Counted from the first letter of the stretch, positions 6,521 to 57,554 are shown. The stretch is DNA of 64,000 nucleotides from Schmidtea polychroa (GCA_044892525.1 CM097885.1:1738001-1802000), one strand, 5' to 3'. Program-made: numbers and translations. Notes: generated from the sequence alone by a model not told the origin.

Positions 6521-6849
6521 CACTAACCATTGTGATTATTATATAAAAAATATTTTGTTACATTTTATTTTGAGAAAATATTGATCTTCATTTTTAGAAA
6601 TTCGATGTGTTCTCGCTTTTCTTTATAAATAAGTTTTATTTATAAAATGAATAATATATATTAAAGATCCTGCTGGTTCGTGTATTGAAATGAAATAAAT
6701 TATTTTTCCGCCCAACATTTTTTGTAAAATTAAATTACTGATTTTATTATAATTATTTTTTTTTATATTTGTTTTAATACACAAACTAAATTTTTTATTT
6801 AATTAATCAGATTTCAAGTAAAATTTGAAATTATTTCATCTTTGCAGAA

Positions 6850-6952
6850 ATGAATTGTCAAGTTATTATTCATTCGAACAATATCATTTCAACTGAAGGT
6901 GTTGTTGTCAAAGGATTTGGACGTGGAAGTAAAGAATTAGGAATTCGAACTG
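6850..6952 (+). CDS. RFK: Riboflavin kinase, coding exon 1
   Basis: ATG at 6850 translates MNCQVIIHSNNIISTEGVVVKGFGRGSKELGIRT, matching the RFK G-x-VVxGFGRGSKxLGxPT signature. Then G|GTAATT phase-1 donor. Confidence 0.93.
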
Positions 6953-7870
6953 GTAATTATCATAATATTTGAGTTATGAAGTACAGCTAAGATTTATATT
7001 TTATACTTAATCATATTTATTCAACTGAATATTTCTTGCTTTTCATTTATCTAAATGATGCTTTTCTGAGTTCTGATAACTTTGCTATTTTTTCTCGTAA
7101 TGTCGCTGAACAATATTTAAGCCTAATTTGCTATTATTAGTGTAGATAGCTGTGAATTATTTCATCAGTATTCATAATTTTGGCTTGAAATTTATTTAGT
7201 TATCTTGTAAAAGATTAGGCATTATACGCATTATACGTGTGCATTATATGCATTATACGTGTTTATTATTTATAATTTATAATCTTTTATGCTTTTACTG
7301 AACAATTAAAATTTATTATTGTATTGTATTTATTGATTGTATCAGAAGGGATGAATTCTGAATTATTAGCTGACAAATAGTCAATAGCTAAACTATTGCT
7401 TTATGAATTTTGGTGAATTTATTTACAATTGGACTCAAATTCAATTATTTTAATGTCGCGATAGTTGAAACTTTAGTTTTGGCTGGCTGGGAAATATTTT
7501 TTCCGGATTTTTATTCGATTAAATGCTATTAATTTGTCCCTTTATCGATTTAATAGTGCGTATGTGCAGTTGTAGAATTAAGTTTTTCTTTTACCTTTTC
7601 TGATAGAGCCTTGAGAGTTATATCACATTTCTCGTATAAAGCTTTTAATATCATCATTAATTTTTATAATTTCTTCTTCCGCCTACAATATTTGTTTCAA
7701 CGCGTCCTTCACTCTTGTAAACTCGCATAATACTTCTAATTGAGGATTCGAGAAGATTAAAAATTCTTGATATTTATTCTATTAATTTGAGGTCGATCTA
7801 GTTTTTAATAATAAATTTCCTCGTGCAATTTGATATTTTATTTCTTGGCTCTGTTATTAAGGATTCGTCT

Positions 7871-10800
7871 TTTTAAAAATATTAAATTGAACTTTATAAA
7901 TATTTAATTGAATTTTATAAATATTAAATTGAATTTTACAAATATTAAATTGAATTTTATAAATATTTTATTGAATTTTATAAATATTTAATTGAATTTT
8001 ACAAATATTAAATTGAACTTTAAATATTTAATTGAATTTTAAAAATATTAAATTGAATTTTAAAAATATTAAATTGAACTTTATAAATATTTAATTGAAT
8101 TTTATAAATATTAAATTGAATTTTATAAATATTTAATTGAATTTTATAAATATTAAATTGAACTTTATAAATATTAAATTGAATTTTAAAAATATTAAAT
8201 TGAACTTTAATCGATTTTTATAAATATTTAATTGAATTTTACAAATATTTAATTGAACTTTAAATATTTAATTGAATTTTAAAAATATTTAATTGAACTT
8301 TAAATATTTAATTGAATTTTAAAAATATTTAATTGAACTTTAAATATTTAATTGAATTTTAAAAATATTTAATTGAACTTTAAATATTTAATTGAATTTT
8401 AAAAATATTAAATTGAACTTTATAAATATTTAATTGAATTTTATAAATATTAAATTGAATTTTATAAATATTAAATTGAACTTTATAAATATTAAATTGA
8501 ATTTTAAAAATATTAAATTGAACTTTAATCGATTTTTATAAATATTTAATTGAATTTTACAAATATTAAATTGAATTTTATAAATATTTAATTGAATTTT
8601 ACAAATATTAAATTGAATTTTACAAATATTAAATTGAATTTTAAAAATATTAAATTGAATTTTATAAATATTAAATTGAATTTTATAAATATTTAATTGA
8701 ATTTTATAAATATTTAATTGAATTTTAAAAATATTAAATTGAACTTTATAAATATTAAATTGAATTTTAAAAATATTTAATTGAACTTTATAAATATTTA
8801 ATTGAATTTTATAAATATTAAATTGAACTTTATAAATATTAAATTGAATTTTAAAAATATTAAATTGAACTTTAATCGATTTTTATAAATATTTAATTGA
8901 ATTTTACAAATATTTAATTGAACTTTAAATATTTAATTGAATTTTAAAAATATTTAATTGAACTTTAATTGATTTTTAAAAATATTAAATTGAATTTTAT
9001 AAATATTTAATTGAATTTTACAAATATTTAATTGAATTTTATAAATATTTAATTGAATTTTAAAAATATTAAATTGAACTTTAATCGATTTTTATAAATA
9101 TTTAATTGAATTTTACAAATATTAAATTGAATTTTATAAATATTTAATTGAATTTTACAAATATTAAATTGAATTTTACAAATATTAAATTGAATTTTAA
9201 AAATATTAAATTGAATTTTATAAATATTAAATTGAATTTTATAAATATTTAATTGAACTTTAATCGATTTTTATAAATATTTAATTGAATTTTACAAATA
9301 TTTAATTGAACTTTAAATATTTAATTGAATTTTAAAAATATTTAATTGAACTTTAAATATTTAATTGAATTTTAAAAATATTTAATTGAACTTTAAATAT
9401 TAAATTGAATTTTAAAAATATTTAATTGAACTTTAAATATTTAATTGAATTTTAAAAATATTAAATTGAACTTTATAAATATTTAATTGAATTTTATAAA
9501 TATTAAATTGAATTTTATAAATATTAAATTGAACTTTATAAATATTAAATTGAATTTTAAAAATATTAAATTGAACTTTATAAATATTAAATTGAATTTT
9601 AAAAATATTAAATTGAACTTTAATCGATTTTTATAAATATTTAATTGAATTTTACAAATATTAAATTGAATTTTATAAATATTTAATTGAATTTTACAAA
9701 TATTAAATTGAATTTTACAAATATTAAATTGAATTTTATAAATATTAAATTGAATTTTATAAATATTTAATTGAATTTTATAAATATTTAATTGAATTTT
9801 AAAAATATTAAATTGAACTTTATAAATATTAAATTGAATTTTAAAAATATTTAATTGAACTTTATAAATATTTAATTGAATTTTATAAATATTAAATTGA
9901 ACTTTATAAATATTAAATTGAATTTTAAAAATATTAAATTGAACTTTAATCGATTTTTATAAATATTTAATTGAATTTTACAAATATTTAATTGAACTTT
10001 AAATATTTAATTGAATTTTAAAAATATTTAATTGAACTTTAAATATTTAATTGAATTTTAAAAATATTTAATTGAACTTTAAATATTTAATTGAATTTTA
10101 AAAATATTTAATTGAACTTTAAATATTTAATTGAATTTTAAAAATATTTAATTGAACTTTAATTGATTTTTAAAAATATTAAATTGAATTTTATAAATAT
10201 TTAATTGAATTTTACAAATATTTAATTGAATTTTATAAATATTTAATTGAATTTTAAAAATATTAAATTGAACTTTAATCGATTTTTATAAATATTTAAT
10301 TGAATTTTACAAATATTAAATTGAATTTTATAAATATTTAATTGAATTTTACAAATATTAAATTGAATTTTACAAATATTAAATTGAATTTTAAAAATAT
10401 TAAATTGAATTTTATAAATATTAAATTGAATTTTATAAATATTTAATTGAATTTTAAAAATATTAAATTGAACTTTATAAATATTAAATTGAATTTTAAA
10501 AATATTTAATTGAACTTTATAAATATTAAATTGAATTTTAAAAATATTAAATTGAACTTTAATCGATTTTTATAAATATTTAATTGAATTTTACAAATAT
10601 TTAATTGAACTTTAAATATTTAATTGAATTTTAAAAATATTTAATTGAACTTTAAATATTTAATTGAATTTTAAAAATATTTAATTGAACTTTAATTGAT
10701 TTTTAAAAATATTAAATTGAATTTTATAAATATTTAATTGAATTTTACAAATATTTAATTGAATTTTATAAATATTTAATTGAATTTTAAAAATATTAAA

Positions 10801-19800: not shown

Positions 19801-22800
19801 AAATTGAATTTTAAAAATATTTAATTGAACTTTAATCGATTTTTATAAATATTTAATTGAATTTTACAAATATTAAATTGAATTTTATAAATATTTAATT
19901 GAATTTTACAAATATTAAATTGAATTTTACAAATATTAAATTGAATTTTAAAAATATTAAATTGAATTTTATAAATATTAAATTGAATTTTATAAATATT
20001 TAATTGAATTTTAAAAATATTAAATTGAACTTTATAAATATTAAATTGAATTTTAAAAATATTTAATTGAACTTTATAAATATTTAATTGAATTTTATAA
20101 ATATTAAATTGAACTTTATAAATATTAAATTGAATTTTATAAATATTTAATTGAATTTTAAAAATATTAAATTGAACTTTATAAATATTAAATTGAATTT
20201 TAAAAATATTTAATTGAACTTTATAAATATTTAATTGAATTTTATAAATATTAAATTGAACTTTATAAATATTAAATTGAATTTTAAAAATATTAAATTG
20301 AACTTTAATCGATTTTTATAAATATTTAATTGAATTTTACAAATATTTAATTGAACTTTAAATATTTAATTGAATTTTAAAAATATTTAATTGAACTTTA
20401 AATATTTAATTGAATTTTAAAAATATTTAATTGAACTTTAAATATTTAATTGAATTTTAAAAATATTTAATTGAACTTTAAATATTTAATTGAATTTTAA
20501 AAATATTTAATTGAACTTTAAATATTTAATTGAATTTTAAAAATATTTAATTGAACTTTAAATATTTAATTGAATTTTAAAAATATTTAATTGAACTTTA
20601 AATATTTAATTGAATTTTAAAAATATTTAATTGAACTTTAAATATTTAATTGAATTTTAAAAATATTTAATTGAACTTTAATTGATTTTTAAAAATATTT
20701 AATTGAATTTTACAAATATTAAATTGAATTTTACAAATATTAAATTGAGTTTTAAAAATATTAAATTGAATTTTATAAATATTAAATTGAATTTTATAAA
20801 TATTTAATTGAATTTTAAAAATATTTAATTGAACTTTAAATATTTAATTGAATTTTAAAAATATTTAATTGAACTTTAATTGATTTTTAAAAATATTAAA
20901 TTGAATTTTAAAAATATTAAATTGAATTTTAAAAATATTTAATTGAACTTTATAAATATTTAATTGAATTTTATAAATATTAAATTGAACTTTATAAATA
21001 TTAAATTGAATTTTATAAATATTTAATTGAATTTTAAAAATATTAAATTGAACTTTATAAATATTAAATTGAATTTTAAAAATATTTAATTGAACTTTAT
21101 AAATATTTAATTGAATTTTATAAATATTAAATTGAACTTTATAAATATTAAATTGAATTTTAAAAATATTAAATTGAACTTTAATCGATTTTTATAAATA
21201 TTTAATTGAATTTTACAAATATTTAATTGAACTTTAAATATTTAATTGAATTTTAAAAATATTTAATTGAACTTTAAATATTTAATTGAATTTTAAAAAT
21301 ATTTAATTGAACTTTAAATATTTAATTGAATTTTAAAAATATTTAATTGAACTTTAAATATTTAATTGAATTTTAAAAATATTTAATTGAACTTTAAATA
21401 TTTAATTGAATTTTAAAAATATTTAATTGAACTTTAAATATTTAATTGAATTTTAAAAATATTTAATTGAACTTTAAATATTTAATTGAATTTTAAAAAT
21501 ATTTAATTGAACTTTAAATATTTAATTGAATTTTAAAAATATTTAATTGAACTTTAATTGATTTTTAAAAATATTTAATTGAATTTTACAAATATTAAAT
21601 TGAATTTTACAAATATTAAATTGAATTTTAAAAATATTAAATTGAATTTTATAAATATTAAATTGAATTTTATAAATATTTAATTGAATTTTAAAAATAT
21701 TTAATTGAACTTTAAATATTTAATTGAATTTTAAAAATATTAAATTGAACTTTATAAATATTAAATTGAATTTTAAAAATATTTAATTGAACTTTATAAA
21801 TATTTAATTGAATTTTAAAAATATTAAATTGAACTTTAATCGATTTTTATAAATATTTAATTGAATTTTACAAATATTTAATTGAACTTTAAATATTTAA
21901 TTGAATTTTAAAAATATTTAATTGAACTTTAAATATTTAATTGAATTTTAAAAATATTTAATTGAACTTTAATTGATTTTTAAAAATATTAAATTGAATT
22001 TTATAAATATTTAATTGAATTTTACAAATATTTAATTGAATTTTATAAATATTTAATTGAATTTTAAAAATATTAAATTGAACTTTAATCGATTTTTATA
22101 AATATTTAATTGAATTTTACAAATATTAAATTGAATTTTATAAATATTTAATTGAATTTTACAAATATTAAATTGAATTTTACAAATATTAAATTGAATT
22201 TTAAAAATATTAAATTGAATTTTATAAATATTAAATTGAATTTTATAAATATTTAATTGAATTTTAAAAATATTAAATTGAACTTTATAAATATTAAATT
22301 GAATTTTAAAAATATTAAATTGAACTTTAATCGATTTTTATAAATATTTAATTGAATTTTACAAATATTTAATTGAACTTTAAATATTAAATTGAATTTT
22401 AAAAATATTAAATTGAACTTTATAAATATTAAATTGAATTTTAAAAATATTAAATTGAACTTTAATCGATTTTTATAAATATTTAATTGAATTTTACAAA
22501 TATTAAATTGAATTTTATAAATATTTAATTGAATTTTACAAATATTAAATTGAATTTTACAAATATTAAATTGAATTTTAAAAATATTAAATTGAATTTT
22601 ATAAATATTAAATTGAATTTTATAAATATTTAATTGAATTTTATAAATATTTAATTGAATTTTAAAAATATTAAATTGAACTTTATAAATATTAAATTGA
22701 ATTTTAAAAATATTTAATTGAACTTTATAAATATTTAATTGAATTTTATAAATATTAAATTGAACTTTATAAATATTAAATTGAATTTTAAAAATATTAA

Positions 22801-28800: not shown

Positions 28801-31800
28801 GAATTTTATAAATATTTAATTGAATTTTACAAATATTAAATTGAATTTTACAAATATTAAATTGAATTTTAAAAATATTAAATTGAATTTTATAAATATT
28901 AAATTGAATTTTATAAATATTTAATTGAATTTTAAAAATATTAAATTGAACTTTATAAATATTAAATTGAATTTTAAAAATATTTAATTGAACTTTATAA
29001 ATATTTAATTGAATTTTATAAATATTAAATTGAACTTTATAAATATTAAATTGAATTTTAAAAATATTAAATTGAACTTTAAAAATATTAAATTGAATTT
29101 TATAAATATTAAATTGAATTTTATAAATATTTAATTGAATTTTATAAATATTTAATTGAATTTTAAAAATATTAAATTGAACTTTATAAATATTAAATTG
29201 AATTTTAAAAATATTTAATTGAACTTTATAAATATTTAATTGAATTTTATAAATATTAAATTGAACTTTATAAATATTAAATTGAATTTTAAAAATATTA
29301 AATTGAACTTTAATCGATTTTTATAAATATTTAATTGAATTTTACAAATATTTAATTGAACTTTAAATATTTAATTGAATTTTAAAAATATTTAATTGAA
29401 CTTTAAATATTTAATTGAATTTTAAAAATATTTAATTGAACTTTAATTGATTTTTAAAAATATTAAATTGAATTTTATAAATATTAAATTGAACTTTATA
29501 AATATTAAATTGAATTTTAAAAATATTAAATTGAACTTTAATCGATTTTTATAAATATTTAATTGAATTTTACAAATATTAAATTGAATTTTATAAATAT
29601 TTAATTGAATTTTACAAATATTAAATTGAATTTTACAAATATTAAATTGAATTTTAAAAATATTAAATTGAATTTTATAAATATTAAATTGAATTTTATA
29701 AATATTTAATTGAATTTTAAAAATATTAAATTGAACTTTATAAATATTAAATTGAATTTTAAAAATATTTAATTGAACTTTAATCGATTTTTATAAATAT
29801 TTAATTGAATTTTACAAATATTTAATTGAACTTTAAATATTTAATTGAATTTTAAAAATATTTAATTGAACTTTAAATATTTAATTGAATTTTAAAAATA
29901 TTTAATTGAACTTTAATTGATTTTTAAAAATATTAAATTGAATTTTATAAATATTTAATTGAATTTTACAAATATTTAATTGAATTTTATAAATATTTAA
30001 TTGAATTTTAAAAATATTAAATTGAACTTTAATCGATTTTTATAAATATTTAATTGAATTTTACAAATATTAAATTGAATTTTATAAATATTTAATTGAA
30101 TTTTACAAATATTAAATTGAATTTTACAAATATTAAATTGAATTTTAAAAATATTAAATTGAATTTTATAAATATTAAATTGAATTTTATAAATATTTAA
30201 TTGAATTTTAAAAATATTAAATTGAACTTTATAAATATTAAATTGAATTTTAAAAATATTAAATTGAACTTTAATCGATTTTTATAAATATTTAATTGAA
30301 TTTTACAAATATTTAATTGAACTTTAAATATTTAATTGAATTTTAAAAATATTTAATTGAACTTTATAAATATTAAATTGAATTTTAAAAATATTAAATT
30401 GAACTTTATAAATATTAAATTGAATTTTAAAAATATTAAATTGAACTTTAATCGATTTTTATAAATATTTAATTGAATTTTACAAATATTAAATTGAATT
30501 TTATAAATATTTAATTGAATTTTACAAATATTAAATTGAATTTTACAAATATTAAATTGAATTTTAAAAATATTAAATTGAACTTTATAAATATTAAATT
30601 GAATTTTAAAAATATTTAATTGAACTTTATAAATATTTAATTGAATTTTATAAATATTAAATTGAACTTTATAAATATTAAATTGAATTTTAAAAATATT
30701 AAATTGAACTTTAATCGATTTTTATAAATATTTAATTGAATTTTACAAATATTTAATTGAACTTTAAATATTTAATTGAATTTTAAAAATATTTAATTGA
30801 ACTTTAAATATTTAATTGAATTTTAAAAATATTTAATTGAACTTTAAATATTTAATTGAATTTTAAAAATATTTAATTGAACTTTAAATATTTAATTGAA
30901 TTTTAAAAATATTTAATTGAACTTTAAATATTTAATTGAATTTTAAAAATATTTAATTGAACTTTAATTGATTTTTAAAAATATTAAATTGAATTTTATA
31001 AATATTTAATTGAATTTTACAAATATTTAATTGAATTTTATAAATATTTAATTGAATTTTAAAAATATTAAATTGAACTTTAATCGATTTTTATAAATAT
31101 TTAATTGAATTTTACAAATATTAAATTGAATTTTATAAATATTTAATTGAATTTTACAAATATTAAATTGAATTTTACAAATATTAAATTGAATTTTAAA
31201 AATATTAAATTGAATTTTATAAATATTAAATTGAATTTTATAAATATTTAATTGAATTTTAAAAATATTAAATTGAACTTTATAAATATTAAATTGAATT
31301 TTAAAAATATTTAATTGAACTTTATAAATATTTAATTGAATTTTATAAATATTAAATTGAACTTTATAAATATTAAATTGAATTTTAAAAATATTAAATT
31401 GAACTTTAATCGATTTTTATAAATATTTAATTGAATTTTACAAATATTTAATTGAACTTTAAATATTTAATTGAATTTTAAAAATATTTAATTGAACTTT
31501 AAATATTTAATTGAATTTTAAAAATATTTAATTGAACTTTAAATATTTAATTGAATTTTAAAAATATTTAATTGAACTTTAAATATTTAATTGAATTTTA
31601 AAAATATTTAATTGAACTTTAAATATTTAATTGAATTTTAAAAATATTTAATTGAACTTTAAATATTTAATTGAATTTTAAAAATATTTAATTGAACTTT
31701 AAATATTTAATTGAATTTTAAAAATATTTAATTGAACTTTAAATATTTAATTGAATTTTAAAAATATTTAATTGAACTTTAATTGATTTTTAAAAATATT

Positions 31801-34800
31801 TAATTGAATTTTACAAATATTAAATTGAATTTTACAAATATTAAATTGAATTTTAAAAATATTAAATTGAATTTTATAAATATTAAATTGAATTTTATAA
31901 ATATTTAATTGAATTTTATAAATATTTAATTGAATTTTAAAAATATTAAATTGAACTTTATAAATATTAAATTGAATTTTAAAAATATTTAATTGAACTT
32001 TATAAATATTTAATTGAATTTTATAAATATTAAATTGAACTTTATAAATATTAAATTGAATTTTAAAAATATTAAATTGAACTTTAATCGATTTTTATTA
32101 ATATTTAATTGAATTTTACAAATATTTAATTGAACTTTAAATATTTAATTGAATTTTAAAAATATTTAATTGAACTTTAAATATTTAATTGAATTTTAAA
32201 AATATTTAATTGAACTTTAAATATTTAATTGAATTTTAAAAATATTTAATTGAACTTTAAATATTTAATTGAATTTTAAAAATATTTAATTGAACTTTAA
32301 ATATTTAATTGAATTTTAAAAATATTTAATTGAACTTTAATTGATTTTTAAAAATATTAAATTGAATTTTATAAATATTTAATTGAATTTTACAAATATT
32401 TAATTGAATTTTATAAATATTTAATTGAATTTTAAAAATATTAAATTGAACTTTAATCGATTTTTATAAATATTTAATTGAATTTTACAAATATTAAATT
32501 GAATTTTATAAATATTTAATTGAATTTTACAAATATTAAATTGAATTTTACAAATATTAAATTGAATTTTAAAAATATTAAATTGAATTTTATAAATATT
32601 AAATTGAATTTTATAAATATTTAATTGAATTTTAAAAATATTAAATTGAACTTTATAAATATTAAATTGAATTTTAAAAATATTAAATTGAACTTTAATC
32701 GATTTTTATAAATATTTAATTGAATTTTACAAATATTTAATTGAACTTTAAATATTTAATTGAATTTTAAAAATATTTAATTGAACTTTAAATATTTAAT
32801 TGAATTTTAAAAATATTTAATTGAACTTTAAATATTTAATTGAATTTTAAAAATATTTAATTGAACTTTAAATATTTAATTGAATTTTAAAAATATTAAA
32901 TTGAACTTTATAAATATTTAATTGAATTTTATAAATATTAAATTGAATTTTATAAATATTAAATTGAATTTAATAAATATTAAATTGAATTTTAAAAATA
33001 TTAAATTGAACTTTAATCGATTTTTATAAATATTTAATTGAATTTTACAAATATTAAATTGAATTTTAAAAATATTTAATTGAATTTTACAAATATTAAA
33101 TTGAATTTTACAAATATTAAATTGAATTTTAAAAATATGAAATTGAATTTTATAAATATTAAATTGAATTTTATAAATATTTAATTGAATTTTATAAATA
33201 TTTAATTGAATTTTAAAAATATTAAATTGAACTTTATAAATATTAAATTGAATTTTAAAAATATTTAATTGAACTTTATAAATATTTAATTGAATTTTAT
33301 AAATATTAAATTGAACTTTATAAATATTAAATTGAATTTTAAAAATATTAAATTGAACTTTAATCGATTTTTATAAATATTTAATTGAATTTTACAAATA
33401 TTTAATTGAACTTTAAATATTTAATTGAATTTTAAAAATATTTAATTGAACTTTAAATATTTAATTGAATTTTAAAAATATTTAATTGAACTTTAATTGA
33501 TTTTTAAAAATATTAAATTGAATTTTATAAATATTTAATTGAATTTTACAAATATTTAATTGAATTTTATAAATATTTAATTGAATTTTAAAAATATTAA
33601 ATTGAACTTTAATCGATTTTTATAAATATTTAATTGAATTTTACAAATATTAAATTGAATTTTATAAATATTTAATTGAATTTTACAAATATTAAATTGA
33701 ATTTTACAAATATTAAATTGAATTTTAAAAATATTAAATTGAATTTTATAAATATTAAATTGAATTTTATAAATATTTAATTGAATTTTAAAAATATTAA
33801 ATTGAACTTTATAAATATTAAATTGAATTTTAAAAATATTTAATTGAACTTTATAAATATTTAATTGAATTTTATAAATATTAAATTGAACTTTATAAAT
33901 ATTAAATTGAATTTTAAAAATATTAAATTGAACTTTAATCGATTTTTATAAATATTTAATTGAATTTTACAAATATTTAATTGAACTTTAAATATTTAAT
34001 TGAATTTTAAAAATATTTAATTGAACTTTAAATATTTAATTGAATTTTAAAAATATTTAATTGAACTTTAAATATTTAATTGAATTTTAAAAATATTTAA
34101 TTGAACTTTAAATATTTAATTGAATTTTAAAAATATTTAATTGAACTTTAAATATTTAATTGAATTTTAAAAATATTTAATTGAACTTTAAATATTTAAT
34201 TGAATTTTAAAAATATTTAATTGAACTTTAAATATTTAATTGAATTTTAAAAATATTTAATTGAACTTTAAATATTTAATTGAATTTTAAAAATATTTAA
34301 TTGAACTTTAATTGATTTTTAAAAATATTTAATTGAATTTTACAAATATTAAATTGAATTTTACAAATATTAAATTGAATTTTAAAAATATTAAATTGAA
34401 TTTTATAAATATTAAATTGAATTTTATAAATATTTAATTGAATTTTATAAATATTTAATTGAATTTTAAAAATATTAAATTGAACTTTATAAATATTAAA
34501 TTGAATTTTAAAAATATTTAATTGAACTTTATAAATATTTAATTGAATTTTATAAATATTAAATTGAACTTTATAAATATTAAATTGAATTTTAAAAATA
34601 TTAAATTGAACTTTAATCGATTTTTATTAATATTTAATTGAATTTTACAAATATTTAATTGAACTTTAAATATTTAATTGAATTTTAAAAATATTTAATT
34701 GAACTTTAAATATTTAATTGAATTTTAAAAATATTTAATTGAACTTTAAATATTTAATTGAATTTTAAAAATATTTAATTGAACTTTAAATATTTAATTG

Positions 34801-37800
34801 AATTTTAAAAATATTTAATTGAACTTTAAATATTTAATTGAATTTTAAAAATATTTAATTGAACTTTAATTGATTTTTAAAAATATTAAATTGAATTTTA
34901 TAAATATTTAATTGAATTTTACAAATATTTAATTGAATTTTATAAATATTTAATTGAATTTTAAAAATATTAAATTGAACTTTAATCGATTTTTATAAAT
35001 ATTTAATTGAATTTTACAAATATTAAATTGAATTTTATAAATATTTAATTGAATTTTACAAATATTAAATTGAATTTTACAAATATTAAATTGAATTTTA
35101 AAAATATTAAATTGAATTTTATAAATATTAAATTGAATTTTATAAATATTTAATTGAATTTTAAAAATATTAAATTGAACTTTATAAATATTAAATTGAA
35201 TTTTAAAAATATTAAATTGAACTTTAATCGATTTTTATAAATATTTAATTGAATTTTACAAATATTTAATTGAACTTTAAATATTTAATTGAATTTTAAA
35301 AATATTTAATTGAACTTTAAATATTTAATTGAATTTTAAAAATATTTAATTGAACTTTAAATATTTAATTGAATTTTAAAAATATTTAATTGAACTTTAA
35401 ATATTTAATTGAATTTTAAAAATATTAAATTGAACTTTATAAATATTTAATTGAATTTTATAAATATTAAATTGAATTTTATAAATATTAAATTGAATTT
35501 AATAAATATTAAATTGAATTTTAAAAATATTAAATTGAACTTTAATCGATTTTTATAAATATTTAATTGAATTTTACAAATATTAAATTGAATTTTAAAA
35601 ATATTTAATTGAATTTTACAAATATTAAATTGAATTTTACAAATATTAAATTGAATTTTAAAAATATGAAATTGAATTTTATAAATATTAAATTGAATTT
35701 TATAAATATTTAATTGAATTTTATAAATATTTAATTGAATTTTAAAAATATTAAATTGAACTTTATAAATATTAAATTGAATTTTAAAAATATTTAATTG
35801 AACTTTATAAATATTTAATTGAATTTTATAAATATTAAATTGAACTTTATAAATATTAAATTGAATTTTAAAAATATTAAATTGAACTTTAATCGATTTT
35901 TATAAATATTTAATTGAATTTTACAAATATTTAATTGAACTTTAAATATTTAATTGAATTTTAAAAATATTTAATTGAACTTTAAATATTTAATTGAATT
36001 TTAAAAATATTTAATTGAACTTTAATTGATTTTTAAAAATATTAAATTGAATTTTATAAATATTTAATTGAATTTTACAAATATTTAATTGAATTTTATA
36101 AATATTTAATTGAATTTTAAAAATATTAAATTGAACTTTAATCGATTTTTATAAATATTTAATTGAATTTTACAAATATTAAATTGAATTTTATAAATAT
36201 TTAATTGAATTTTACAAATATTAAATTGAATTTTACAAATATTAAATTGAATTTTAAAAATATTAAATTGAATTTTATAAATATTAAATTGAATTTTATA
36301 AATATTTAATTGAATTTTAAAAATATTAAATTGAACTTTATAAATATTAAATTGAATTTTAAAAATATTTAATTGAACTTTATAAATATTTAATTGAATT
36401 TTATAAATATTAAATTGAACTTTATAAATATTAAATTGAATTTTAAAAATATTAAATTGAACTTTAAAAATATTAAATTGAATTTTATAAATATTAAATT
36501 GAATTTTATAAATATTTAATTGAATTTTATAAATATTTAATTGAATTTTAAAAATATTAAATTGAACTTTATAAATATTAAATTGAATTTTAAAAATATT
36601 TAATTGAACTTTATAAATATTTAATTGAATTTTATAAATATTAAATTGAACTTTATAAATATTAAATTGAATTTTAAAAATATTAAATTGAACTTTAATC
36701 GATTTTTATAAATATTTAATTGAATTTTACAAATATTTAATTGAACTTTAAATATTTAATTGAATTTTAAAAATATTTAATTGAACTTTAAATATTTAAT
36801 TGAATTTTAAAAATATTTAATTGAACTTTAATTGATTTTTAAAAATATTAAATTGAATTTTATAAATATTAAATTGAACTTTATAAATATTAAATTGAAT
36901 TTTAAAAATATTAAATTGAACTTTAATCGATTTTTATAAATATTTAATTGAATTTTACAAATATTAAATTGAATTTTATAAATATTTAATTGAATTTTAC
37001 AAATATTAAATTGAATTTTACAAATATTAAATTGAATTTTAAAAATATTAAATTGAATTTTATAAATATTAAATTGAATTTTATAAATATTTAATTGAAT
37101 TTTAAAAATATTAAATTGAACTTTATAAATATTAAATTGAATTTTAAAAATATTTAATTGAACTTTAATCGATTTTTATAAATATTTAATTGAATTTTAC
37201 AAATATTTAATTGAACTTTAAATATTTAATTGAATTTTAAAAATATTTAATTGAACTTTAAATATTTAATTGAATTTTAAAAATATTTAATTGAACTTTA
37301 ATTGATTTTTAAAAATATTAAATTGAATTTTATAAATATTTAATTGAATTTTACAAATATTTAATTGAATTTTATAAATATTAAATTGAATTTTAAAAAT
37401 ATTTAATTGAATTTTACAAATATTAAATTGAATTTTACAAATATTAAATTGAATTTTAAAAATATGAAATTGAATTTTATAAATATTAAATTGAATTTTA
37501 TAAATATTTAATTGAATTTTATAAATATTTAATTGAATTTTAAAAATATTAAATTGAACTTTATAAATATTAAATTGAATTTTAAAAATATTTAATTGAA
37601 CTTTATAAATATTTAATTGAATTTTATAAATATTAAATTGAACTTTATAAATATTAAATTGAATTTTAAAAATATTAAATTGAACTTTAATCGATTTTTA
37701 TAAATATTTAATTGAATTTTACAAATATTTAATTGAACTTTAAATATTTAATTGAATTTTAAAAATATTTAATTGAACTTTAAATATTTAATTGAATTTT

Positions 37801-46800: not shown

Positions 46801-47248
46801 TTTAATTGATTTTTAAAAATATTAAATTGAATTTTATAAATATTTAATTGAATTTTACAAATATTAAATTGAATTTTATAAATATTAAATTGAATTTTAT
46901 AAATATTTAATTGAATTTTATAAATATTTAATTGAATTTTAAAAAAATTAAATTGAACTTTATAAATATTAAATTGAATTTTAAAAATATTAAATTGAAC
47001 TTTATAAATATTTAATTGAATTTTATAAATATTAAATTGAACTTTATAAATATTAAATTGAATTTTAAAAATATTAAATTGAACTTTAATCGATTTTTAT
47101 AAATATTTAATTGAATTTTACAAATATTAAATTGAATTTTATAAATATTTAATTGAATTTTACAAATATTAAATTGAATTTTACAAATATTAAATTGAAT
47201 TTTAAAAATATTAAATTGAACTTTATAAATATTAAATTGAATTTAAAA
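7871..47248. repeat. ~39.4-kb AT-rich tandem satellite; basic unit 21 bp AATTGAA(T/C)TTTA(T/A/C)AAATATT(A/T), with 19-bp and 32-bp variant units
   Basis: Directly visible head-to-tail array in one orientation with no insertions seen. Variants AATTGAACTTTAAATATTT (19) and AATTGAACTTTAAT(C/T)GATTTTTA(T/A)AAATATT(T/A) (32). Roughly 1,900 units, estimated from length. Confidence 0.99.
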
Positions 47249-47357
47249 CCCTGTAAAAGTTTATAATTAAAATTAAAATTTGGGATATTTTATAAAATAC
47301 CTAAAACAATTAATATATAAAAATAAATTAAAAAAAAATATATTTAAAAACACATTT

Positions 47358-47783
47358 GGGTCATTGCATAATTACTTCACCCCAAAAATGACCATTTTTG
47401 ACCCACCTACACACCCTGTCACTTTTGGTCACATTTCTGTTGATCCATTCACCCCACCCCCCCCCCACACACACACAGTGTCGTCATTTTATTGTTCACG
47501 AAATGAGGGTAGCCTAGTGGTACCATACGGTCCTCTAGACTGCTTGGGAGCTTGCTGTAGCAACTATAATTGTTAGTCATCGTTGTCTAGTCAAAGTATC
47601 AGCATCACTGTGGCTTAATAGCAGAGGAAGATTGTTGCAATAATAATTCTTGTGGTCCATAAAATACAGCTAGCGTGACGTCACATTCAGCTCAACTCAT
47701 CCACCCACCACGTCACGTTTCGTCACGTTTTCAAGGAAACTACCCACCTACCCTCGAGCGTGATGTAATTATGAAATGACCCC
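47358..47783. mobile_element. MITE with ~23-bp TIRs (PIF/Harbinger-like termini)
   Basis: Left GGGTCATTGCATAATTACTTCAC; reverse complement of the right end GGGTCATTTCATAATTACATCAC (21/23). TSD ambiguous. Confidence 0.75.
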
Positions 47784-48552
47784 TTTAAAGAAAATTGAGA
47801 TAAAAAATAAATAAAGAAAATATAATTAAATCTAGAAGTTGCCAAAAAAACTAGAGAATCTAATACATTAATACAAAATTGCTAAAAAATAAAAATGTTG
47901 GGAGCACACTAAAACTAATTGAAAGAGCCGATTCCAACTTTGTTGAAGTTCAAAAAGAAAGAAATACGAGTTATTTCAGAATTTATGATAAAATACGACG
48001 ATTTTGTAGTTGTTCCACAGATAAAGAATTGGGCTATATGCGTGAACATGCCTGTAGGGTTATACAACGTTTTGGAGAACCTGGAAATTGGACCATTTTT
48101 GTAATAATTCTTTTTTTTCTATTTTGTTAAAATATCAATTTACTATTTATCAATAATACGGAGTTCGGTAAAAATATGTATGAAATTTTGTCCGTAAATT
48201 GGGTTAAATAATGTAGATATTAAACATAATTTAAGTTATAGCTTCAAAAAATAAAAATGGCGCAACAATGATTATTTGATTGTACCGATTGTACGATCTC
48301 ATTAACCAATGTCTATTTTTTATAATATCCTGCCACTGGAATAAGTTGATATCTGGAAGATTGGAGACAATTACAAAATGAATACGAGTGTAATTCATTA
48401 ACAAAGTTTACAATAAAATTATAGAAATTCCTATGTATAAGATATATTTTCTAACATATTTTCGTTCCGGGCCCCCTTATTGTTTATTCAACCGTGTTTA
48501 TAGGGCATGTTTTAGGTATGACTATAATGTTATATTTCTAATTAATAGCAAA

Positions 48553-48713
48553 TCTAATATATAAAGATGAAAGTTTGTTTGTTTGTTACCCATAGAATTC
48601 CCCACCGTTGGACCTAGGGCGCTGAGATTTTGCATGTGACCCTCATTTGACTTGGGACAGGTCATAGTCCTAGTTTCAACTCCAGATGACCATCCCATAG
48701 GGTACCCTAACCT
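48553..48713 (+). mobile_element. Non-autonomous Helitron-like (Lep1/DINE-type) 5' end
   Basis: A|TCTAATATATAAAGATGAAAGTTTGTTTGTTTGTT: TC start after A followed by a GTTT microsatellite, as I recall for Lep1-type elements. 3' end not found. Confidence 0.55.
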
Positions 48714-50160
48714 CATGGGCGTCCGCAGGAATCTTTCCAAGGGGGGGGGGGGGACAAAAAAAACAAAGTAGAGAACTTCTACATATTAATGTAATACTTA
48801 AACATACAACGATTAGTATCATTTAAATTCTTGTTATGCTCATTTACGAAAAAAAAGTTGTTACTATATATAATCAGTTTCAATTAAAGTCATTTTTATC
48901 GTTGAAACATTAATGTGATTTTAGGAATTAATAGAATAAAAAAACGTAAAAAAAGTTCTTTGTTGTATATTTCCCATAAATATTTATTCAATTATAAAAC
49001 AAAATTACAGACTTATTCATAAATATTACTTTTTGAAAAGAAACTGCAAATGTCTGTGATCTTGACCAAATTTATTGATCCCTTTGTCCATTACTTTTCG
49101 CTTATTTTTTCTGTCACTAGAAAGTCTATTTTCACACATTGTTGACCTTAGCCACGTTTTGACTCTTCTCAGTGTGCTAAATGATCTTTTAACCGTGCAA
49201 GTTGGCACTGACAATTTTAAAGCAATAAGAACTGCTTTCTTAATAGCTGGAAAAAGGTCTGTGAATTGTAATAAATCCATCATCCCATCGCGACTTATGA
49301 TTTCAAAATCCGACTTTTTAGTTGACCACATCTCAAATCAAGTGCTTGCCTCAGCATCAAAGTTTTCAATTTGATAATCCATTATGATGTTTTCTGTGTG
49401 AGTTTTGAATTCATCTTTTGAAAGTTTGAACATTTCCACTGGGTGAAGTGAAAATAGACTAAAATTTGATTATGTTTTTGTCATTGAATCTGCTCTCCAA
49501 CGATGAGATGATTGAATCCAAGTATGGTATAAAGACAGATCTTCGAAAGTATTCTTCAACAGTTGACCACCATTATTTGAACGATGTTTTTGCCTCTTAC
49601 ATTGTCTGGGAATTGGCAACTAGATGTTCAATTGTTCTGCCAATTTGTCACTTTGAGAAATAATGGTCTTAAAAACACTTCGTCATTTTGTCTGCGCTGC
49701 ATTTAGCGCCATTCTCTTTTATCAAAACTCACAAACCTTTCATCTTTATTTTCTCAAGTAAAATAATATTGTTAGACAAACACTTCAAAAAATGCAAAAA
49801 AAATGAAAAAAAATATTGATCTATAGTCGAAAATGAAGATACATAATTTGAATTTCAAAATAATCAATCAGTAAATAAGAAAATAAAGGATTTATTGATA
49901 ATTATTAAGCTTTACAATTTGTCGATAAGTTCCTTTATTATTTTCATTATTAATCAATTTATTTATAAATCAATATTTGAGTGAAATAAATAAAAACAGT
50001 GTTTTACTTTATAAACAAACAGGAAGCCGCTTTAAATTAAATTTTTTTATTATTTTTTTTGTCTTGGGTTTTCCCAACATTGTTTGAGCGCGTCTATTAA
50101 AATGTGTTTAAATTCATCAAAAAATAGAATGGTTTGGGAAATCCAGGGAGGGGGGGGGCA
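48714..50160 (-). mobile_element. Internally deleted hAT element with transposase C-terminal remnant (THAP12/PRKRIR-like type)
   Basis: Terminus-like CATGGGCGTCCGCAGGAATCTTTCCAAGGGG at 48714. Minus-strand peptides VEEYFRRSVFIPYLDSIISSLESRF (~49490-49560) and LFPAIKK..VPTCTVKRSFSTLRRVKTWLRSTM..RLS (49026-49331). G-rich subterminal run near 50146-50160; the second TIR is missing. Confidence 0.78.
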
Positions 50161-51058
50161 ATAACTTACATATTACATTTTGAAGCAGTAAATTTTCTCA
50201 TTACAATATTTACTCATAAATTTTATTCCCAAATTCATTTCCTCGATAAAATTTCCTAAATTATTATTAGGGTTCATTTTCACATGCAAGATTGATTACA
50301 TCCGTAACTTTTATTTATCCTCTTTATTTCTACTTTCAATTATTCTCTATACTCGTTTTTATAGTTTGTCCATATAGTTTGTCAGTTGTTGAAGGATCAT
50401 TTGAACGATAATGTAATGATTGCCATAACTTAGTTGCCTTCCTACAGTGAACTCATTGGTTTGTTTGACTTATATTATTTCCAAATTGAAATTAGTTCTG
50501 TTTCAGGTTTCCCATTAAATATAGTTTTGAATGAGGTGGAATCATTTTACTTATTACGTATTTCATATTCTAATTTAATGATTTACTAAAGACTTCCTGT
50601 GGGAACCGAATATCGGGGGAGCTTCGTTGCTGGCATTTTTTCTGTTGTGAAAATTTTTAATTAATGATCTTAGTTGATAAATGCAATTGATATAGGAGGC
50701 TTGATATTCACCTCTACGTCTATTATGATACTGTGACAAAGGATACTTGCCTTTGATTCACGACCAGTTGATTCGTCAATGCGATACTGAGTAAGGGAAC
50801 GAAAACAATTATCGAAAACCTAAATTCTGCTGCATAGTTATTATCTGAAAAGTTACCCAGTCCAATTAAATGCGATAATTATCTGAAACCTATTCAATGT
50901 TTTGCTAACTAATTTGTCCAATTTCATAATCTTCTTCATCATTCCTTTTCAGTGCAACAGAAGCATAGCGATGCAATTTCCCTTCCCATATCTTATTAGC
51001 CATTATCACTGTCAATTAATCAACTCATCTAATATATTTTATAGAAATTATTAGATCA

Positions 51059-52530: not shown

Positions 52531-53320
52531 ATTTGTATTGGGACTGCTGGTGTGCGTGTGTAAAAGTTAATATTTTATTATATGTTATGATTATGACAAA
52601 GTAATTAATAATAATACGAACCAATCTGATTTGAAGGATACATAACAAAATTCTTTCTTTGAATCTTCCAGAATTTTTCCAATCGTTTTTTATTTTTTAC
52701 TTTAATTTTATTTCCAATGATATTCTTGTTTTTTATTTAACTTTTTATTGGTTTTATTATTCGAATTCGTTTTTTTCATTATATGAACTTTTTATAATTA
52801 TGGCAATAAACCTTCATCCAACTGTCCTGAGTGAGGCCATTTATTCATCAATTATTTATCCCATTCCACGTGACGTAACTTATCAGGTCTTGTGAATATC
52901 AAATTGTATATCAAATATTAATCACTTCATACTCAAGGAAGTTTAACAGTTAAACAAAAATATAATAAAACACATTTTAACGTTACGTTATTTCCGAGAA
53001 CACAGATTTATGACTGACACCTAAAATTGATTTACAGCAAACAAAAAAATAACACGCATACATATATACAGTTTGCTGAAATATAAGCTTTGAAACTATA
53101 TCTGAATTTTGTATGATCATGTATATTTTTAGAAGTTTTATGAAAAATACCATTTGTAGAACTTCTCATTTTGCACATCAATTAGCTTCTTTTTCATTTA
53201 TAATTTTACTTTTTTCATTTTTAAAATAATACATTTTTCTACTGATAATTTTATTAATATTATTTATTGTAAATAAAGAAATAAACATGCCAATGATTTC
53301 ATTAAAACGCGTTATAAGTA

Positions 53321-53932
53321 CAGGAATACCTCGAACAGTACGGTTAATCGGTTCTGGAATTTAGCCGTACTATTTGAAACCAGAGCACACTGGCGCTAAT
53401 AAATTTACGATTAAGAAATTTAAAAATCGTGATTATAATCTAGTAAACAAAAAATATTTTGTTATGTATTTTTATTTTTCTGATATTCAAGAGCAAAACA
53501 AGCATATTTAACACAGTTGTACACTTAAATAAGCCGGCAATACAAATTCATTGCAACTAAATCAAAAAAAAGAATTTATTTCATTTTAAAAATATTAAAA
53601 ATAGCTGATGAAAAATAAGTAAATAAAATTAAATAAACACAACAATTTAATTTAAAAAAGATCAACAAAAGCAATTCACTTAAATTCTAATGTTTAGATT
53701 CATTTTTTATTGTTTAAAAATTTCAATAACGATGTCTGAACTTTTTTTGGTCGTTTCAAACAAATTATTAAACACGTGCCGTATGATTTTATAATAACGA
53801 ATAAATTCTAAAAATTAATTTAAAAAAACTTTTTTAAATTTCGAGATTTTTATTTAATCATTTTAAAAACAATCATATTTTGAAAATTTTAAAACCGTAC
53901 TGGTTGAAACCGTATTATGTGAGGTATTCCTG
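53321..53932. mobile_element. 612-bp Tc1/mariner-superfamily (pogo/Tigger-like) MITE with TA TSD
   Basis: TA|CAGGAATACCTCGAACAGTACGGTT ... AACCGTATTATGTGAGGTATTCCTG|TA. Confidence 0.85.
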
Positions 53933-54956
53933 TAATCTAATAATTAAATTACCTAATTAATAATTAGGTTGAATGGTTTGATGCATATGTGTATTTTAAT
54001 GTATGTCTGAAACATGTCTTATATTTCATGTTTATTACTACATAATAGTCGATACTTGAACTATTATGACATAAGAGATTTTAGAATATACTAAACTTTG
54101 AATTATTTAACAAGAATCACTCAATAAATTTTACATTATACGCCTAATTCCAAAATTTACCATAATCTAAAATAAATCAATAGTATAGGAACACACAAAC
54201 ATACATGTGTGTAAAAATTTAATGTTCCGAAATTTAATATATTTATTATTGGAATTGAGAAAGTGGCAGGAAGATAATTTAACATACCAACACAAAACAC
54301 AATCGAAGAATGCATGCAAATTTATTATAGCATTTTTTTCCGAAATTTATCATTAATTAACATATTGTTAACATATTATTATTAAAAAATTATGGAAGAA
54401 AAACTTTTTGATTCAGAATCTACCTTGAGCTACAGAGAAAAAGACGATAAAACATTGTCAGATTTAATTATAAAATAATTTTGAATTTAACATTTCCTTA
54501 GATTTTCAGATATTTTCCAATATTAATTCCAATTAATTTCATAAAATTCCTAAAATAACTGAAATTTAATTAAAAATAATTTCTATTATAAATGCTGACT
54601 AAAAGTAATATTTAAGAACTTGAATAATGATCTTATAATTATATAAAATCAAAATTCAAGTCTTAAAAGTTACTTAATATTAAAATACTTACCTGAAAAC
54701 CACTTTAAAATTAAATAAATGAAGTTATAAACTTCATTTTCACATAAATGGCGAGTCACCTCAAATGGTGTGTACACCAACGTGTATTATAGACAATGTT
54801 AAATTTTGGAATTAGGTGTATTTCAACAGTGTCATTCTCAGGTATGATAGAAAAAATTATAGATAATATAAATTTATTAAAAAACAATCTATAAAAAAAT
54901 TTTAAAAACAAAATTATTTATCTTCATAAACCACAATCAATTTAACATTCAGACTA

Positions 54957-55076
54957 CCCTTGAATCGCGCAGATAAGCCGCGGCTTATCTGAAAAAAAAC
55001 GTCAATTTTTTCAGAAAAATTGTCGAGTAATTTTTAAAAAAATACATAAATGCATTTTATCTGCGCGATTTTAGGG
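54957..55076. mobile_element. 120-bp MITE with TA TSD (Tc2/pogo-like termini)
   Basis: TA|CCCTTGAATCGCGCAGATAA ... TTATCTGCGCGATTTTAGGG|TA (18/20 inverted match). Confidence 0.75.
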
Positions 55077-56420
55077 TAGTTAAAAACATTCACAGCATTT
55101 TGCATATCAATTTTTGGATGCAATGATCTTAACAATAACGATTTGCATATCAAACATTCTCAATATTTTCAAACATGAATCCTTAGAATTATTAATACAT
55201 TTAACAAAAGTCGCTTTTATCAGCATTAAAAAAGATTTTGATTAACCCATTCTTCATTAGAAACTCAACCAAATTATCAGAATTTTGCTGAATTCCAGAA
55301 GTATTAGTCAGTTAAAAATCGCAAACATAGAAATTCTCTTTTAGGTGATGGTCCCATCATCCATTTAAAATCATTAATTTCTGAAACTTCAACTGATTTA
55401 CTTTTAAATTATATTTAAAATTAAGTAAATTAGAGTAATAATTTAAAATTTATGGTAAGATATTTTGAAAAATCGACGTCCACTGAGAATTTTAAAAAAG
55501 TAAAGCAGTTTTTAATGAAAATTTTTATGAAATAAATTTTTGTGAATAATAATAATAATTCAACCAATAACGAAGTATCAATAAATAGTTTAACCACTAT
55601 GCATCATCAACCAAATACCAACTACCATACATTTACTACCAGTTAATAACCAGTAAGTATTTACAAACAGCTAACAACAAACACAAAAAGATGCAATAAA
55701 AGAAAATATGCATTGCAAAGTTTATTCTTCATCACATATTTGCTTTTTATAAGCTCTTAATGATTCTGCCAGTAAAATATGGTTGTTTGAAAATAAATTT
55801 TTAATTTAAATTAAATTTTAAATAATAATTAGTTTAATTAATCTATAATATCTGTTAGACGCAATTAATTCAAGTCTTCTTCAAGCATTTATTTTTATAA
55901 CAACTTCAAAATTGAGCCGTTTACTAGCGTATTTAAACACCGAGGCGTGATAATTATTAATATTAATGTAATTACTGGTCATACATTTAATTGATTTAAT
56001 TTAATATATAATTTAAATATAAAAATTTAACAGAAATAATTATTTCTACTAACTGATCTCACTTCTACCATTTAACCATAATAATTTTATATAGAGATTT
56101 ACTAAATCCTTACAATATCTATAGTTATTTTTATCCTACTAAAGATGGCAATGAGAATGTCGAAATATTTATGAATAAAGATTATTTATATGAGTATAAT
56201 TATAACATTTATAAACGATAAAATCCAGGTTAGTCTTGACGGTTACCTACCTAATATGTAGCCTTGGCCTGAAATATATATTTATTATAGAATTAGTAAA
56301 AGCACCCTGCGATTAATGTATTGTAACACACTTATATTGGATACGCAATTGTCAATAATTTCTGGTGCGTTCTAGAGATTCGTTGTGAAATTTGTCGGCC
56401 ATTGGCTTTATCGACAAGTT

Positions 56421-56424
<4 letters not shown>

Positions 56425-56476
<52 letters not shown>
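56425..56476. repeat. (TA)26 microsatellite
   Basis: Perfect TA run. Confidence 0.97.
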
Positions 56477-56479
<3 letters not shown>

Positions 56480-56533
56480 CTGGTTAATATGTTGCTCATT
56501 TTTGTCAATTAATGATAATATTTGCATTCGCAG

Positions 56534-56685
56534 CAAATTACGATCAAAATCTGGTGGATGAATTACCTGAAGACTTCAAAACTGGTGTTTATTACGGTTG
56601 GGCGCAAGTAAACAATGGTGAAGTGTTAAAATGTGTCATCAACGTTGGCTGGTGTCCATATTACCAAAACAAGCGCAAGTCATTT
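56534..56685 (+). CDS. RFK: Riboflavin kinase, coding exon 2
   Basis: cag|CA-NYDQNLVDELPEDFKTGVYYGWAQVNNGEVLKCVINVGWCPYYQNKRKSF|GTAAGC, with the RFK motifs GVYYGWA and GWxPYY. Confidence 0.95.
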
Positions 56686-56732
56686 GTAAGCAACGCATGT
56701 GATCGTGACCATTTATATTGCGTTGAAAATAG

Positions 56733-56835
56733 GAAACCCATATCATGGAAGTGTTTGACGAGGATTTTTATGGTGAAATTCTGCGTGTTATTATTGCCGG
56801 TTATATTCGACCAGAAATGAACTTTGATAATCTCG
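56733..56835 (+). CDS. RFK: Riboflavin kinase, coding exon 3
   Basis: After a 47-nt GT-AG intron (56686-56732): ETHIMEVFDEDFYGEILRVIIAGYIRPEMNFDNL+G|GTAAGT, with the catalytic ExH and the DFYG and YIRPE motifs. Confidence 0.95.
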
Positions 56836-57435
56836 GTAAGTATTCTGTGTGCATGCGTGTATGTGAGAGCGAGAGAGATTGTGAGGTCGAATAAACATAG
56901 TGATATTATGATCGTCGGCATTCGTCGTTGGTATATTAATTGAGTGTGATCTGGTTGTGTTTTGACAAGGTTCAAGGTCGCCAGAGTAAAATTGTCGATC
57001 ATCGGGCTTCTTTCATATATTTGCCGTCTCTCTCTGTCTCTGGTATTTCTAGCTTGTGTTACCGACAATTATCATGTCGGTAGTACAGTATTCTAATTTG
57101 GCATTCCTTGATCCTATCATATTTGCGGTCACATTTCAGATTGAATTGATTGCACTCTCCAGTCGATTTCGCCACATTTCACTTGAGCAATGTTTAGGAA
57201 TGTTGCAATTTTATGGAAATGCTGTTGGCATTTAAAAGCTTAATTACCTTTGTTAGCTGTTTGTTGAGGTCTCTGTCCATCTACCAGGTTGTTTGTCCAT
57301 TTTTACTGTCATCACATTCAGCCTTATAATTCTTTTCACAACTCTTTGCGACTTGCTAGTGTATAATAAATGTTTGCTTTGATATTTGGGCTCTTCTGCC
57401 ACAAGTTGCGAGCAATTGTTTTTATCTAATTACAG

Positions 57436-57554
57436 ATGCGCTTATCCGAATGATCCACAGCGACATTGATATTGCCAGCACTCAGCTGAATTGGCCGTCC
57501 AATTCCAGGATAAAATTGTTGTTTCACGAAATGTTTCAATCAAGATCAAATTAG
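57436..57554 (+). CDS. RFK: Riboflavin kinase, coding exon 4 (to stop)
   Basis: After a 600-nt phase-1 intron (ctaattacag acceptor): (D)ALIRMIHSDIDIASTQLNWPSNSRIKLLFHEMFQSRSN*, matching the LIxxIxxDIxxA C-terminal helix. TAG at 57552-57554. Confidence 0.9.

Follow-up and report, generated by a model that had tools for sequence, protein, structure and literature searches.

A tandem array of apparent transposon-tip origin in the first intron of a planarian riboflavin kinase gene

How does a small housekeeping gene come to be split by an intron of almost 50 kb that is mostly simple repeat, and how might it be expressed across that distance? The riboflavin kinase gene (RFK) raises this question in a 64,000-nt stretch of the Schmidtea polychroa genome (GCA_044892525.1 CM097885.1:1738001-1802000; hereafter the window), where exon 1 is separated from exons 2 to 4 by one long tandem array. 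The gene, the array and the relatives of both were examined in the window and by searches of the 781-Mb assembly, which consists of 1,012 contigs. The observation that an RFK gene is split by a repeat-filled 50-kb intron was confirmed, as far as the assembly goes. Our preferred reading, which we hold with a probability of about 0.7, is that RFK is a real single-copy gene and that its first intron was inflated by the local expansion of a transposon-derived repeat, most likely a neutral passenger.

The riboflavin kinase gene and its spliced frame

The spliced coding sequence of RFK is 477 nt long and encodes 158 aa with zero internal stops, and all three introns are of the GT..AG type (Table 1). 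The donor of exon 1 and the acceptor of exon 2 have matching phases, and when the two exons were joined the split codon G/CA restored the sequence ...GFGRGSKELGIRT-A-NYDQ... (GIRT-A-NYDQ). The spliced frame bore out the preliminary description of an intact 158-aa RFK with in-phase joins, canonical splice sites and no stops, and the exon and intron coordinates given there agree with ours but for the end of exon 3, which is 56835. The in-frame stop nearest to the ATG is found 8 codons 5' of it.

Two further features were observed next to the splice sites. An acceptor-like sequence, ttatttcatctttgcag (...ctttgcag), occupies 6833-6849 and ends 2 nt 5' of the ATG; RFK may have an upstream non-coding exon or a spliced leader at its 5' end. 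At the far side of intron 1, a perfect (TA)26 microsatellite at 56425-56476 ends 57 nt before the exon 2 acceptor, near the expected branch point of the 49.6-kb intron.

The identity of the product was established from the domain profile and from a close homologue. Matches to the Pfam Flavokinase domain (PF01687) are colinear and do not overlap, covering positions 5-25 in exon 1, 37-71 in exon 2 (E 4e-7) and 75-106 in exon 3 (E 3e-6), while exon 4 is without a match. A search of a protein collection with the exon 2 peptide, for which longer proteins were requested, returned two results, a fungal RFK and a protein, P0001, with 86% over exon 2. P0001 (158 aa, source label 'metaclust') and the spliced model are colinear over their full lengths, the initial Met and the last residue included, and are identical at 138 of the 158 positions (29/34 in exon 1, 43/50 in exon 2, 27/33 in exon 3 and 36/38 in exon 4). 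It spans all three junctions and contains the joint between exons 1 and 2 as GIRTANYDQ. Because P0001 is colinear across all three junctions at this level of identity, the RFK gene model is not due to chance. A close relative evidently makes a protein that fuses the exon 1 peptide to the exon 2 peptide exactly as modelled, and the contiguity of P0001 suggests that it was derived from a spliced transcript.

The Flavokinase domain of P0001 is complete (positions 5-122 of the 124 in the profile, E 1.9e-34), and the protein matches human RFK 1NB0 over residues 16-146 with an E-value of 1.5e-49. Its next relatives are 423 animal-type RFKs, none of them above 64% identity, with diverse animal RFKs at 50-64%. 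No flatworm-named RFK was present among the 120 of these 423 that were listed, and a full-length RFK protein from S. polychroa itself was absent from the protein collection searched.

The sequence motifs of the enzyme were also located in the spliced product. The Gly-rich GxGRGSxxLGxPTAN segment, whose Thr and Asn have roles described in the structural literature, is present with both residues as GFGRGSKELGIRTAN and is rebuilt over the joint between exons 1 and 2. The conserved Glu of the S-x-E-T-H segment, which has a catalytic role, is found in FETHIMEVF; its codon lies across the joint between exons 2 and 3, and it aligns via P0001 with METHIM of 1NB0. The product resembles human RFK (PDB 1NB0/1P4M/1Q9S; PF01687) in having a full-length Flavokinase domain of the eukaryotic monofunctional type, but differs from it and from most homologues by an Arg in place of the Pro of the PTAN motif (RTAN, residues 32-36; 6943-6951 / 56534-56538). 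At this position 117 of 121 homologues have P, three have R and one has A; the R is common to P0001 and two vertebrate entries.

The exon 1 peptide and the exon 2 peptide each gave one match in the genome, and a whole-genome search with P0001 gave exactly four matches, which are the four RFK exons of the window. No second RFK copy was found in the 781-Mb assembly with these three queries. Between the array and exon 2, a permissive local tblastn search revealed no further exon 1, and the best other exon 1-like matches in the window had E-values of 3.1 (5' of exon 1) and 16 (in the intron, on the minus strand). The genome-wide check that had been proposed for other RFK copies accordingly returned a single-copy gene, and the claim that the essential N-terminal motif is confined to exon 1, 49.6 kb 5' of exon 2, also held. 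We conclude that RFK is a real, single-copy gene, and probably a functional one.

Table 1. Coordinates of the RFK exons and introns and of the repeats within intron 1, counted from the first nucleotide of the window; a slash marks a splice site
Feature	Position	Strand	Remarks
RFK exon 1	6850-6952	+	ATG...ACTG/gtaatt; residues 1-34, including GFGRGSKELGIRT; up to the split codon G/
RFK intron 1	6953-56533	+	49,581 nt, phase 1, gtaatt...ttcgcag
Truncated dispersed repeat, inner part	7577-7870	-	antisense to RFK; probably Tc1/mariner-like; frameshifted remnants of a helix-turn-helix (HTH)-like N-terminus
Tandem array	7871-47244		39,374 bp; 21-bp unit AATTGAAYTTTAWAAATATTW, with 19- and 11-bp variants; delimited by Tandem Repeats Finder (TRF) and autocorrelation
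Last repeat unit and terminal tip	47227-47254	-	...AAAACCCTGT; closes the array; the tip itself is 47245-47254
Unrelated high-copy dispersed repeat	47358-47785		inside intron 1; 1,416 first-look candidates, 40 scored at 79-92% identity
hAT-transposase C-terminal fragment (weak)	49029-49337	-	inside intron 1; Dimer_Tnp_hAT E 0.0024, under cut-off
RFK exon 2	56534-56686	+	ttcgcag/CAAAT...
RFK intron 2	56687-56733	+	47 nt, gtaagc...aatag
RFK exon 3	56734-56835	+	Flavokinase match; Glu of FETH spans the exon 2/3 joint
RFK intron 3	56836-57435	+	600 nt, gtaagt...ttacag
RFK exon 4	57436-57554	+	coding part, TAG stop

The tandem array and its probable origin near a transposon tip

The array accounts for 79.4% of intron 1 (39,374 of 49,581 nt), close to the earlier estimate that some 80% of the intron is one tandem array. 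Its AT content is 92.4%, and the GC content is 7.6% in each 2-kb bin. A 49-base probe covering two units, with up to 3 mismatches allowed, gave 972 matches in the genome, all forward and none in reverse (control 0), and the same probe gave 972 matches within the window, at 7885-47193. Since the two numbers are the same, every assembled copy of the array repeat lies in this single array; divergent or unassembled arrays would escape a two-unit probe. The term 'satellite' used in the preliminary description is therefore not appropriate in the sense of a genomic satellite family: with 972 of 972 matches here, the repeat is an expansion at one locus of what appears to be the subterminal repeat of a transposon.

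When the array was parsed by its G residues, it yielded 1,980 units of 34 types only, and 13 types made up 1,913 of the 1,979 counted units. A regular higher-order repeat was considered and rejected, as the local best lags vary by place from 533 to 5,647 bp. The longest exact repeat inside the array is 3,072 bp long, at a lag of 2,529 bp. At about 30867-36467 the array contains about 2.2 identical copies of a 2,529-bp block, which mark either a very recent duplication or a check-point for the assembly.

The sequences at the two borders of the array were then compared with the rest of the genome. The 294 bp before the array (7577-7870) match the genome at 34 places with 79-89% identity, and the majority of these matches stop exactly at the array border. 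At the opposite border, the 28-mer formed by the last unit and the terminal tip has 15 genome matches (8 forward and 7 reverse; control 0), one of which is 47227-47254. We fetched 23 other copies of the transposon (L004-L006 and L011-L030), and the anchor used by the script was found in 21. The number of units following the anchor was zero in five copies, one in ten, two in two and three in four; in other words, 16 of the 21 anchored copies carry the 21-bp unit one to three times at the equivalent place, and the window array, scored by the identical script criterion, has 1,811 units. Of the five copies scored at zero, four are near-identical to one another and diverge ahead of the motif, and the fifth has three to four units by eye, the first of them too diverged for the script. 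The two copies without an anchor (L021 and L026) have one unit each by eye. The tip CAAACCCTGT follows directly after the units in 8 of the 21 anchored copies and is itself followed by unrelated DNA; the window array ends with ...AAATTGAATTTAAAACCCTGTAAAAG. Because the inner part is found to the left of the array and the terminal tip to the right, in the same order as in other copies, the array lies inside one transposon copy. These comparisons argue that the array is an in-situ expansion from a short motif near the transposon tip, inside an old truncated copy.

Four of the fetched copies deserve separate mention. L027-L030 (G000 C1012:5642-6339 and three places in C2:150.85-150.92 Mb) have near-identical inner parts, diverge before the unit and have a common downstream sequence, as if a segmental repeat had taken up a fragment of the transposon.

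The structure of the parent element could be seen in short copies. One of these, of 705 bp (L031, G000 C4:21179600-21180420), has perfect 27-nt inverted arms made of the 21-bp unit, and resembles a miniature inverted-repeat transposable element derived from the parent transposon by internal deletion. Perfect inverted arms are present in one of three short copies; the other two have the unit inverted at both ends, with one tip decayed in each. On the minus strand of the window, remnants of open reading frames (ORFs) for the HTH-like N-terminus are found at 7550-7663 and 7657-7773. The matching ORFs of two other copies gave Pfam matches below threshold only, namely HTH_SB (E 0.025), HTH_32 (E 0.01) and HTH_Tnp_Tc3_2 (E 0.084); HTH_SB and HTH_Tnp_Tc3_2 are the HTH domains of the Sleeping Beauty and Tc3 transposases. 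The tip reads ...CCCTG and is followed by TA in most of the copies that keep it, as judged by eye and at one end only. Tentatively, the parent element would be Tc1/mariner-like. Two ORFs, at 60342-60857 (+) in the window and at 942-1419 of the reverse complement of L005, look by eye like fragments of a Tc1-type transposase; the L005 ORF has a D..DNDPKH-type segment, and the ORF in the window is without a Pfam match at an E-value of 0.01 or better.

Very few private changes are present in the array, whereas its transposon flank differs from related copies by 11-21%. A near-uniform array beside a diverged flank suggests that the insertion is old and that the expansion was recent and block-wise. 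In this one copy of a family that carries one to three copies of the 21-bp motif near its inverted terminal tip, the motif would have grown into an array of about 1,800-1,900 units (39.4 kb), probably through replication slippage and the unequal exchange of growing blocks.

The uniformity of the array also has to be set against the alternative that it is an assembly artefact, be it an incorrect array length (over- or under-expanded) or a fusion of two loci via the repeat, so that exon 1 would not lie 49.6 kb from exons 2-4. Such an error would fit the small number of unit types (34), the exact internal repeats of up to 3,072 bp and the 2,529-bp block present 2.2 times, in an array whose present form is that of the assembly. 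However, the sequences at the two borders are parts of a single transposon copy and are ordered and oriented as in other copies, and no other locus or contig end has the repeat (972/972 matches here, 0 in reverse). Furthermore, 99.6% of the 3-kb windows in the array are unique, which means that accurate long reads could order them, and the window contains no N. A mis-join through the repeat is unlikely because the transposon is found at both borders, because the order of the units is irregular and because the repeat occurs nowhere else, contig ends included; a wrong copy number is possible. Taken as a whole, we consider an artefact improbable and an array expanded in place the better account of the locus.

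Probable transcription and splicing across the array

The two strands of the array were very different in their content of splice-site dinucleotides. On the RFK-sense strand, GT and AG occur once each, in a single AGT at 20748-20750, where about 926 and 903, respectively, were expected from the base composition. The antisense strand has 912 GT and 612 AG. This near-absence on the sense strand arises because the unit has a single G, in a TGA or CGA context (TGA 1,864, CGA 115 and AGT 1). With a sense strand nearly free of GT and AG, the array is without decoy donors, acceptors or recursive splice sites. Selection against GT and AG in the array is not claimed, as three G contexts in a few amplified unit types leave no statistical power. 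We treat the lack of these dinucleotides as the reason that the array is harmless in its present orientation and not as a sign of selection.

The most likely course of expression is that RNA polymerase II (Pol II) transcribes from exon 1 through the array and that the 49.6-kb intron is removed whole. Since no other first exon exists, read-through by Pol II is the most economical reading. A different possibility is that transcription does not pass through the array. Exon 1 would then be a relic or belong to a separate transcript, with a nearer promoter driving exons 2-4, or separate RNAs of the two halves would be joined by trans-splicing. In favour of this view, flatworms are known to use spliced-leader trans-splicing, an acceptor-like site is found just before the ATG of exon 1 and 787 ATTAAA hexamers are present on the sense strand of the array, read-through being deduced from the sequence. 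In contrast, exon 1 has the indispensable GxGRGSxxLGxxTAN segment, the only such sequence in the genome, and is itself intact, with the same start Met as P0001 and 29/34 identical residues. Without exon 1, the first in-frame Met in exons 2-4 comes only at residue 90 or later, and the Gly-rich ...TAN segment is lost. The matching phase of the exon 1 donor and the exon 2 acceptor also speaks for a direct joint. We judge a gene without read-through to be very unlikely.

The array could also have been kept for a function, as a delay in transcription time, as a source of repeat RNA or small RNA antisense to the transposon, or as a sponge of about 1,800 sites for transposase. Subterminal repeats are bound by transposases in Tc1 elements of the inverted repeat/direct repeat (IR/DR) type, and the unit, as the subterminal repeat of a transposon end, is the type of site that transposases of that class bind. 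Transcription of RFK would yield unit RNA antisense to the transposon, and the orientation is free of splice signals. Yet the array is found at one locus only, is very young and homogeneous and is without sign of conservation. The transposon family, moreover, looks old and decayed (copies 79-89% identical, ORFs frameshifted, 15 intact tips left), so there would be little to defend against. A retained function appears a shade less probable even than the lack of read-through. Least probable of all is a more specific proposal, that read-through of a constitutively expressed housekeeping gene gives about 1,800 antisense transposon-end repeats per cell, which serve as a small-RNA source or as a transposase sponge against the family and are kept only in the orientation free of GU and AG. 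The transcription delay, dedicated processing mode and abundant satellite RNA suggested in the preliminary description are guesses, and special processing is not supported.

We favour a passive history for the array. Intron 1 of RFK contains, antisense to the gene, an old and truncated DNA transposon, probably Tc1/mariner-like, whose 21-bp motif would have expanded there. RFK would most likely be transcribed from exon 1, or from upstream of it, straight through the array, and the 49.6 kb would then be spliced out as one ordinary, though long, intron. The array would be tolerable in its present orientation as its sense RNA is nearly without GU and AG, and hence would offer no decoy sites and give rise to no internal exons. 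Most likely the array has no function of its own and is a passenger, either neutral or slightly costly.

Several observations weigh against parts of this reading. As to the gene, the Flavokinase match of exon 1 taken by itself has an E-value of 0.014, under the cut-off, and P0001, of the source 'metaclust', is presumed to derive from a spliced transcript. With the acceptor-like ...ctttgcag 2 nt before the ATG, exon 1 as modelled may not include the true 5' end of RFK. The joint 6952^56534 is predicted in the present organism from genomic sequence, just as the length and continuity of the array are taken solely from the assembly. The Tc1/mariner label, in turn, was given on HTH matches below threshold and a tip that is usually followed by TA. 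The lack of GT and AG is the property of one amplified 21-mer, and such a unit would lack both about 3 times in 10 by composition. Finally, 787 ATTAAA and 3 AATAAA hexamers and no U1-type sites are found on the RFK-sense strand of the array; read-through is less self-evident because the ATTAAA hexamers could in principle serve as premature poly(A) signals.

Surroundings and comparison with known systems

The neighbourhood of RFK is also rich in remnants of mobile elements. A retroelement integrase is found 5' of RFK at 3-1235 (+; rve E 1.9e-16), and a hAT-type transposase in three adjacent frames is located just 5' of the gene at 2647-5124 (-; DUF4371 E 1.4e-13 and Dimer_Tnp_hAT E 1.1e-12). 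No non-transposon gene was recognised in intron 1 among the ORFs of at least 50 aa, two of which were put to Pfam.

The closest parallel for the composition of the intron is the group of Drosophila Y-linked fertility genes kl-2, kl-3 and kl-5, which are reported to have gigantic introns of satellite DNA that extend from hundreds of kb to Mb (PMC6508621, PMC11207136). As in these genes, intron 1 of RFK is mostly a simple AT-rich tandem repeat that is apparently transcribed and spliced out. There are four differences. The intron is 50 kb long here, compared to hundreds of kb to Mb; the gene encodes a housekeeping enzyme and is not testis-specific; the repeat is unique to the RFK locus and not a genome-wide satellite; and there is no evidence of a dedicated expression programme for RFK, which is known here from its sequence only. 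The 'intron gigantism' of the Drosophila Y type that had been proposed for this locus is therefore too strong a term, as 49,581 nt is the size of an ordinary long animal intron and far under the hundreds of kb given in these sources.

The origin of the array has its counterpart in Tetris of Drosophila virilis, a transposon-derived satellite (PMC4079207; reviewed in PMC9659126 and PMC12628747). In these papers, repeats within the terminal inverted repeat of a DNA transposon, or close to it, are described as having grown into a long array that is still flanked by the transposon, as is the case here. In contrast to Tetris as described there, only one expanded copy is found in the whole assembly, in the intron of an essential gene, and there is no dispersed or heterochromatic family; the 23 other copies examined have 0-3 units.

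Planarian genomes are described in one genome study as repeat-rich and AT-rich, with introns that were expanded at least partly via transposon insertions and with nested tandem repeats that can be resolved with accurate long reads (PMC11410931). Compared to the intron growth outlined there, the length of RFK intron 1 is mostly due to amplification of the 21-bp motif after insertion and not to the insertion itself. According to a preprint, planarian RFK is broadly expressed and RNA interference against RFK leads to strong regeneration defects (bioRxiv 10.64898/2026.10.12.758197). In titles and the beginnings of abstracts on satellite DNA and introns of Schmidtea mediterranea, no report of the RFK locus was found. 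Among the papers listed on intronic satellites and tandem repeats in housekeeping genes nothing was relevant, and none of those on planarian riboflavin kinase dealt with gene structure.

The locus is an instance of known processes, with a composition like that of the Drosophila Y genes and an origin like that of Tetris, and not a new gene organisation. It opens no long-standing question and shows no new kind of gene expression. What is added here is the traced transposon-tip origin of an array confined to a single locus, and its splice-silent orientation. The birth of a 39-kb array can be followed base by base to a motif present in one to three copies at a transposon tip, as the state before the expansion is kept in sister copies. 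An essential gene of 477 nt apparently survives the conversion of 79% of a 50-kb intron into a repeat of 92% AT, and this may be harmless for a plain mechanical reason, namely that the transcribed strand is practically without GU or AG. The locus could serve as a test bed for how Pol II passes through 39 kb that contain some 800 AUUAAA hexamers and lack U1-type sites, and for splicing as a possible filter of the orientation of intronic repeats.

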